Positions 16,060 through 63,605 of a stretch of DNA of 64,000 nucleotides are shown piece by piece (position 1 is the stretch's first letter; every line of letters starts with the position of its first letter). The notes beneath the pieces are model-generated. The model had not been told where the DNA came from, did not search any database, and saw nothing but the letters and a program-made list of their open reading frames with translations. The stretch lies in assembly GCF_003991155.1 (NCBI RefSeq), contig NZ_CP031293.1; one strand, 5' to 3'. This DNA comes from Escherichia coli. Its GTDB lineage: Bacteria > Pseudomonadota > Gammaproteobacteria > Enterobacterales > Enterobacteriaceae. Made by a program: the position numbers and the translations under genes.

Positions 16060-16416
16060 GCCAGTGATAAAAGTGCATAAACGGCGGAGGCTAACTGAAA
16101 ATCAAGGAGTTATAACCACATCATATGCATTTAAAGTGCATATAAAGTGAATACGTTTGCGATGTGGGTGAATAAAAAGAATAAAAAACGCAATGTTATG
16201 CAGAAGTAAAATATAATTCTGGAATTGTGATCATTGACGAAATTTACTGGAAATTACTGCGCCATTCTGACGCAGCGCGCACCAAAAGCGGGCATTTTTT
16301 GCGCCATCGTTGACATCATTAACAACCATCGATCAAATCACTTAACAACAGGCGGTAAGCAAAGCGAAATTCTGCTACCATCCACGCACTCTTTATCTGA
16401 ATAAATGGCAGCGACT

Positions 16417-62032: not shown

Positions 62033-62179
62033 TGTTTCCTCACTTATCTGTTTTGCATTAGCGGGTTAGTCGCTGATAAAAAGCATAGCACAACATCGGG
62101 AGGGCAAGATTTGTGACGAGCATCACGGAGGAATTTTTTGCGATGGCGCAGAAATTGCGCCATCAACGATCAGTGATAA

Positions 62180-62362
62180 TTACCAACCACAAACATCATG
62201 TTCGTTTTCCGTGTCATAAGAACGCACGGTATTCACCAGATCTTTTATCACTTCAGCCGCCACTTCTGGTACCAGCAAAGTCATCGGCGTCTCTGTTTCA
62301 TAATCGACAGAAACGCCATTGCTGTTATTGGTGACGGTCACGGTATACGTTGCTTTGCCCAT
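62180..62362 (-). CDS. yoaG: DUF1869 protein
   Basis: 60-aa ORF immediately downstream of yeaR. Confidence 0.7.
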   Translation of the reverse strand: MGKATYTVTVTNNSNGVSVDYETETPMTLLVPEVAAEVIKDLVNTVRSYDTENEHDVCGW

Positions 62363-62365
62363 GAT

Positions 62366-62725
62366 TCATTTCCCGTTATGAATGACTTTCCGTTGTTGCG
62401 CGCCTTCCATCAGGACTTCAGGAGCAACGAAGAAGTCAATGTTGAAATAAGTGTCGTCAGTCATGGCTTCAATGTTGTGCCACTTTTCTGGAGGGAACAC
62501 CGCAAACTGCCCCGCTTCGATAAGGATCACTTGATCAGGCTCTGCACTGTGTTCATCAGCGTAGCCGAGATATTTGACCGCCCCATGCATAACGGAAAGG
62601 CGTGGGTAAACCCCCGGGCGCGTTCCTTTATCAAGATGACGTTCGAATATTCCGGCAGGCGCAGTTTGTTTATTCCAGAAAGGCGTTGAGCGCGTATGAA
62701 TATAATTCTGTGGGATTTGCAGCAT
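62366..62725 (-). CDS. yeaR: DUF1971 (cupin-like) protein
   Basis: 119-aa ORF. Confidence 0.8.
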   Translation of the reverse strand: MLQIPQNYIHTRSTPFWNKQTAPAGIFERHLDKGTRPGVYPRLSVMHGAVKYLGYADEHSAEPDQVILIEAGQFAVFPPEKWHNIEAMTDDTYFNIDFFVAPEVLMEGAQQRKVIHNGK

Positions 62726-62791
62726 CCTTTTCCCTCCTTCGGTGAATGCGCTGAAAACGGTTTATTCCAGCCGTTTCAGGGTACGCCTGAT

Positions 62792-62814
62792 AATTTGCAT
62801 TTTAAATACCATTT
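62792..62814 (-). promoter_or_regulatory. NsrR-type palindrome upstream of yeaR (AATTTGCATTTTAAATACCATTT on + strand)
   Basis: Resembles the NsrR consensus AANATGCATTTnAAATGCATnTT; yeaR-yoaG is known to be NO/nitrate responsive. Confidence 0.4.
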
Positions 62815-62897
62815 ATTGGTTACTTTTTAGCACCATATCAGAGAAGAATCAGGGAGGATTACAGATGGGAAGCCCGCGACAACGCGGGCTGAAAGCA

Positions 62898-63605
<708 letters not shown>

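Follow-up and report, generated by a model that had tools for sequence, protein, structure and literature searches.

The NsrR operator of the Escherichia coli yeaR-yoaG promoter and its overlap with the NarL site and the -35 region

We analysed a 64,000-nucleotide stretch of DNA (the window), which contains a 23-bp sequence of interest near its end. A megablast search with positions 62150-62920 matched many complete E. coli chromosomes with stretches of 100% identity, identifying the window as E. coli chromosome. The genes next to the 23-bp sequence form a small operon on the minus strand. The first gene, yeaR (62366-62725), encodes a DUF1971 protein of 119 amino acids, and the second gene of the operon, yoaG (62180-62362), encodes a DUF1869 protein of 60 amino acids. 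Both were assigned from the open-reading-frame list together with RefSeq annotation, taken for yeaR from identical E. coli records. Because the ATG of yeaR lies at 62725 on the minus strand, its promoter is also read on the minus strand. Upstream of yeaR, a 212-amino-acid open reading frame (63536-62898) corresponds to leuE, as annotated in identical E. coli chromosomes. Directly downstream of the leuE stop codon, at 62871-62890, two GC-rich arms of 8 bp, AGCCCGCG-N4-CGCGGGCT, form a perfect inverted repeat, which is probably the terminator hairpin of leuE. This repeat has no clear T-run and was not called in a terminator scan; its GGCGGGC motif recurs in many of the orthologous loci.

The promoter elements of yeaR could be placed on the window with the help of a published NarL activation complex, solved on the yeaR promoter by cryo-EM at 3.2 Å, in which the NarL 7-2-7 site TAACCAATAAATGGTA is centred at -43.5 and is followed just downstream by a -35 element described as "intrinsically weak" (PMC10853779). 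The window contains an exact match to this NarL site at 62807-62822 on the minus strand, and the site is kept in most orthologs. Counting from the published centre, the positions -44/-43 correspond to 62815/62814, and the transcription start (+1) is a G at 62771 on the minus strand, a position obtained by counting. The corresponding column (G110) is invariant in the alignment of the orthologs, and the transcript of the published scaffold likewise starts with G (PMC10853779). From the same geometry, the -10 hexamer would be TACCCT (62778-62783, minus strand, -12 to -7), and a 17-bp spacing to this hexamer would place the weak -35 element, TTTAAA, at 62801-62806 on the minus strand (-35 to -30). 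A scan of 62100-63000 with the sigma-70 consensus called no promoter, because both hexamers are weak, as expected of a NarL-dependent promoter. The consensus heptamer of NarL is TACYYMT, and inverted pairs of it are spaced by 2 bp. Each heptamer of TAACCAATAAATGGTA fits this consensus at 5/7 positions, and the site consists of two inverted TACYYMT-like heptamers with a 2-bp gap, adjoining the -35 element.

The initial annotation had singled out the 23-mer AATTTGCATTTTAAATACCATTT as an NsrR-like palindrome, and its letters are exactly those of positions 62792-62814 on the plus strand. The 23-mer is an imperfect 11-1-11 palindrome in which 8/11 arm positions are self-complementary, a level reached by only 106 of the 63,978 23-mers in the window. 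Inverted half-sites, TTGCATTT and AAATACCA, are indeed present, but they only approximate the half-site ATGCATTT that had been quoted for them. With its ends 67 and 89 bp upstream of the ATG and its centre at 78 bp, the site agrees with the original estimate of about 70 bp upstream of the yeaR start. A generic inverted-repeat search recovered the terminator-like hairpin of leuE alone and missed the NsrR palindrome, because its arms share no common exact 6-base seed.

The reverse complement of the 23-mer, AAATGGTATTTAAAATGCAAATT, is letter for letter the 11-1-11 NsrR site listed for yeaR in Table 4 of Mehta et al. 2015 (PMC5320621). The flagged 23-mer is accordingly the known NsrR operator, and the site, the regulator and the promoter architecture have all been published before. 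It is the same object as the NsrR operator of yeaR-yoaG in K-12, to which it is identical over all 23 bp (Lin, Bledsoe & Stewart 2007, J Bacteriol 189:7539; PMC5320621). A 56-bp promoter core is also identical to that of K-12, and the window strain differs solely in the flanks of the 172-bp spacer (98.8% identity). On the sense strand of yeaR the operator reads AAATGGTATTT-A-AAATGCAAATT (62792-62814, minus strand), an assignment resting on the identity with the published site, the matrix score and the conservation in orthologs described below. With +1 placed by counting, the operator overlaps core promoter elements: the centre of the palindrome, 62803, corresponds to -32, and the operator spans -43 to -21, over the -35 region. 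The operator and the NarL site share 8 bp (62807-62814), all of them in the upstream arm of the operator. The abstract of Lin, Bledsoe and Stewart from 2007 is said to document an NsrR operator centred at -32, which agrees with the centre derived here.

For scoring the site independently of its own published entry, we derived a weight matrix for NsrR from Table 4 of PMC5320621, using its 11-1-11 sites except that of yeaR, in two versions based either on all 25 other sites or on the 16 ChIP-seq-positive sites alone. As an inverted repeat with 11-1-11 spacing, the 23-mer fits both versions, with 22.3 bits (25 sites) and 21.3 bits (16 sites). In this motif scan, which the initial annotation had proposed as a check, it ranked 1st among 63,978 window positions; the runner-up reached at most 13.9 bits, leaving a gap of about 8 bits. 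Its score is mid-range among the known sites used for the matrix, which span 12-31 bits. The palindrome might alternatively be a functionless near-palindrome that arose by chance, given that both the intergenic DNA and the NsrR consensus are AT-rich and that the palindrome is imperfect (8/11). However, exact convolution gave a per-position probability of 2e-8 for a uniform background, 5e-8 for the local composition and 4e-7 at 70% A+T, corresponding to 0.001-0.03 expected matches as good in 64 kb, even at the AT-rich extreme. No position in 1.9 Mb of first-order Markov-simulated sequence reached the score of the flagged site. Moreover, the site coincides with the published NsrR site of yeaR (PMC5320621), and its position is kept across four genera while the flanking sequences diverge. 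We consider that the conservation and the score statistics effectively rule out a chance origin, whose residual probability is close to nil.

Elsewhere in the window, at 16122-16144, we noticed a near-perfect palindrome, CATATGCATTTAAAGTGCATATA. It is located between the divergent genes astC and xthA, at a distance of about 150-170 bp upstream of astC, and its core of 17 bp, ATGCATTT-A-AAGTGCAT, has one mismatch to the NsrR core consensus and the spacing of NsrR sites. The outer AA/TT is missing from the palindrome, which reaches no more than 11.8-13.3 bits on the NsrR matrix. Of the neighbouring genes looked up in Mehta et al. 2015, namely ydjX, xthA and ydjY, none is mentioned there. Possibly, a different regulator of the ast promoter binds to this palindrome.

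The conservation of the yeaR promoter was assessed with a YeaR protein scan of one genome per species, which yielded 26 usable loci from Escherichia species, many Citrobacter, Salmonella enterica subsp. arizonae and diarizonae, and Silvania. Within 300 bp upstream of yeaR, the best match to the NsrR matrix was found at the same relative position in 26/26 loci, so the site is kept upstream of the orthologous genes throughout. The centres of these matches lie 73-84 bp from the ATG, and their scores range from 12.5 to 23.8 bits, compared with at most 10.6 bits for the second-best matches. Column identities from an alignment of 14 representatives revealed a conserved island, with mean identities of 0.83 for the NarL site, 0.84 for the NsrR site and 0.89 for the -10 hexamer (TAACCT in many orthologs); the upstream flank and the leader reached only 0.48 and 0.61, respectively. 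The most variable column of the operator is its uninformative centre base (A/T/G; 0.50), and the TTT/AAA flanking it is 93-100% conserved. Across the operator, conservation correlated with matrix information (Spearman 0.51, p 0.012), a value that is indicative only because the sequences are related. Of 5,415 E. coli genomes, 4,766 have an identical 56-bp core (62771-62826), and just 546 reach at least 99% identity over the full 172-bp spacer. The overlapping NarL site and -35 element must account for part of the operator's conservation.

This overlap is also the basis of a second alternative, namely that the NarL 7-2-7 site, a Fis site and the -35 hexamer together produce the conserved palindromic look as a by-product, and that NsrR influences yeaR only indirectly, for example through NO-dependent changes in nitrate/nitrite signalling. 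The 8 bp shared between the upstream arm and the NarL site and the coincidence of the palindrome centre with the -35 region are in its favour, as is a Fis footprint over the NarL site that Squire et al. reportedly observed in 2009. The downstream arm (-31 to -21), however, lies outside the NarL site and mostly within the -35/-10 spacer, where RNA polymerase makes no base-specific demand. In this arm, conservation is 93-100% for the ATG at -29 to -27, and the TT at -22/-21 is invariant, both at informative positions of the NsrR matrix. Since the spacer makes no sequence demand for the polymerase, NsrR is the best explanation for these conserved positions. A match of 21-22 bits to a matrix built from independent sites would also be unexpected for a by-product. 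Furthermore, Silvania, the only lineage with a clearly poor match to the NarL 7-2-7 site (3/7 and 4/7), has an even better NsrR palindrome, AAGTCGCATTTTAAATGCATTTT, with 23.6 bits. One further observation speaks for a by-product: NsrR ChIP-seq in strain CFT073 gave peaks at ytfE, hmp and hcp and none at yeaR despite the identical site, which the authors considered a probable false negative (PMC5320621). This missing peak is also the chief reservation about the operator itself. Weighing these points, we regard a by-product as improbable. We instead favour the flagged 23-mer as the operator through which NsrR controls the E. coli yeaR-yoaG promoter, with a probability of roughly 90%. This reading, which was also that of the initial annotation, is supported by the identity with the published site, the first rank on the matrix, the conservation in 26 promoters and the position over the -35 region.

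At informative positions, the upstream arm of the operator departs from the NsrR consensus with G instead of T at -39 and T instead of C at -37, which counts against the NsrR assignment; these bases are the ones required by the NarL heptamer and not those preferred by NsrR. From the sequence, the degenerate upstream arm reads as a compromise between NsrR and NarL. In the Citrobacter sedlakii/amalonaticus group (L006, L014 and L023), the NarL sequence TAACCAATAAATGGTA is replaced by TGCCCCTTTTGGTGTA, which also moves the upstream arm of the NsrR site nearer to its consensus at -39 (T). We considered whether loss of the NarL site alone, with the NsrR site retained, had occurred in these three Citrobacter lineages, and rejected this because TGCCCCTTTTGGTGTA scores as a NarL site, fitting the NarL heptamers equally well or better (6/7 and 5/7). 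The replacement looks like a turnover of overlapping sites in which neither was lost.

Counted from the deduced +1, the yeaR transcript has a 46-nt leader (62726-62770, minus strand), which contains the Shine-Dalgarno sequence AGGAGG (62738-62733, minus strand) in a region conserved in the orthologs. At the extreme 5' end of the predicted transcript, a hairpin, GCUGGAA-N8-UUUCAGC (62771-62750), could form; the minimum free energy of the 46-nt leader is -12 kcal/mol with a z-score of -1.9. Hairpins with other arm sequences were observed at the equivalent leader position in Citrobacter orthologs (CAGCGA/UCGCUG) and Salmonella orthologs (CAGCGGUG/UAUCGUUG), and the ortholog hairpins are 6-8 bp long in single-sequence folds. 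RNAalifold found no consensus structure for the aligned ortholog leaders, because the alignment does not bring the hairpin arms into register. The leader hairpin could be a stabilising stem-loop at the 5' end of the mRNA, or could reflect a DNA palindrome of the CAGC...GCTG type.

The experiment with an nsrR mutant, which the initial annotation had proposed as a refuting test, is said to have been performed by Filenko et al. and by Lin et al., both in 2007, with a positive result. According to Mehta et al., who refer to Lin et al. 2007, yeaR is "known to be regulated by NsrR". In their data, yeaR and yoaG rank among the genes that nitrate induces most strongly in CFT073, at about 160-fold, alongside ytfE and hcp (PMC5320621). 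Other studies likewise place yeaR-yoaG under the control of NarL and NsrR (PMC4959519, PMC7082413). The response to nitric oxide suggested by the initial annotation is therefore supported as far as NsrR is concerned, with the refinement that the promoter also responds to nitrate and nitrite via NarL. Rodionov 2005 makes no mention of yeaR, and the wording in PMC5320621 suggests that an earlier ChIP-chip study in K-12 supported ygbA and not yeaR.

The geometry of the promoter suggests how this control could operate. NsrR is a repressor of the Rrf2 family that senses nitric oxide with an iron-sulfur cluster, and nitrosylation of this cluster by NO releases NsrR. A holo-NsrR dimer bound to the 11-1-11 repeat at -32 would cover the weak -35 element and 8 bp of the NarL site. 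Bound NsrR would be expected to keep the polymerase, through sigma region 4, off the -35 element by steric occlusion, and would probably also block phospho-NarL from the downstream heptamer by competition. Nitrosylation of the cluster by NO would then vacate the operator, and phospho-NarL, formed with nitrate or nitrite, could recruit the polymerase via the alpha C-terminal domain (PMC10853779). The likely mechanism is hence occlusion of RNA polymerase, and possibly of NarL, relieved by NO damage to the cluster of NsrR.

The NsrR operators of ytfE, hmp, hcp-hcr and ygbA, which like yeaR are all NO- and nitrite-induced, have the 11-1-11 arrangement with a consensus of about AAGATGCATTT-N-AAATGCATCTT. 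The yeaR site shares with them the 23-bp geometry, the informative AA, the TGCATTT and the mirrored arm ending in TT. In contrast to these operators, its upstream arm AAATGGTATTT is degenerate, because the same arm forms half of the NarL site, and its promoter is activator-dependent. The NarL site (62807-62822) belongs to the same conserved island as the operator (PMC10853779; Lin 2007; Squire 2009), but differs from it in being bound by a response regulator of the NarL/FixJ type, in its TACYYMT motif and in serving activation. The other NarL-dependent, FNR-independent promoter, that of ogt, is also activated by NarL alone via a 7-2-7 site adjoining the -35 element; unlike the yeaR promoter, it needs two NarL sites, and no NsrR operator is described for it in the cited literature (PMC7419079).

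The 8-bp overlap raises a more specific and, in our view, rather speculative possibility, namely that NsrR and NarL bind in a mutually exclusive manner. NsrR might then act mainly by blocking the activator, and the promoter might work as a gate requiring both nitrate and NO. On the same assumption, the upstream arm would be an evolutionary compromise, and occupancy by NarL or Fis might account for the absent ChIP-seq peak at yeaR. If true, such a mutual-exclusion gate would do no more than refine a known system, and it may already be covered by the mutational analysis of Lin et al. 2007. What was recovered here is a real regulatory site that the initial annotation, as a first-stage reading, had picked from raw sequence at exact coordinates. 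The promoter to which it belongs has served for building the structure of the NarL activation complex (PMC10853779) and, in a synthetic-memory screen, was a sensor trigger that responded in the mouse gut (PMC6561318). For those who engineer the yeaR promoter, it is useful to know exactly how its NsrR, NarL and -35 elements overlap.
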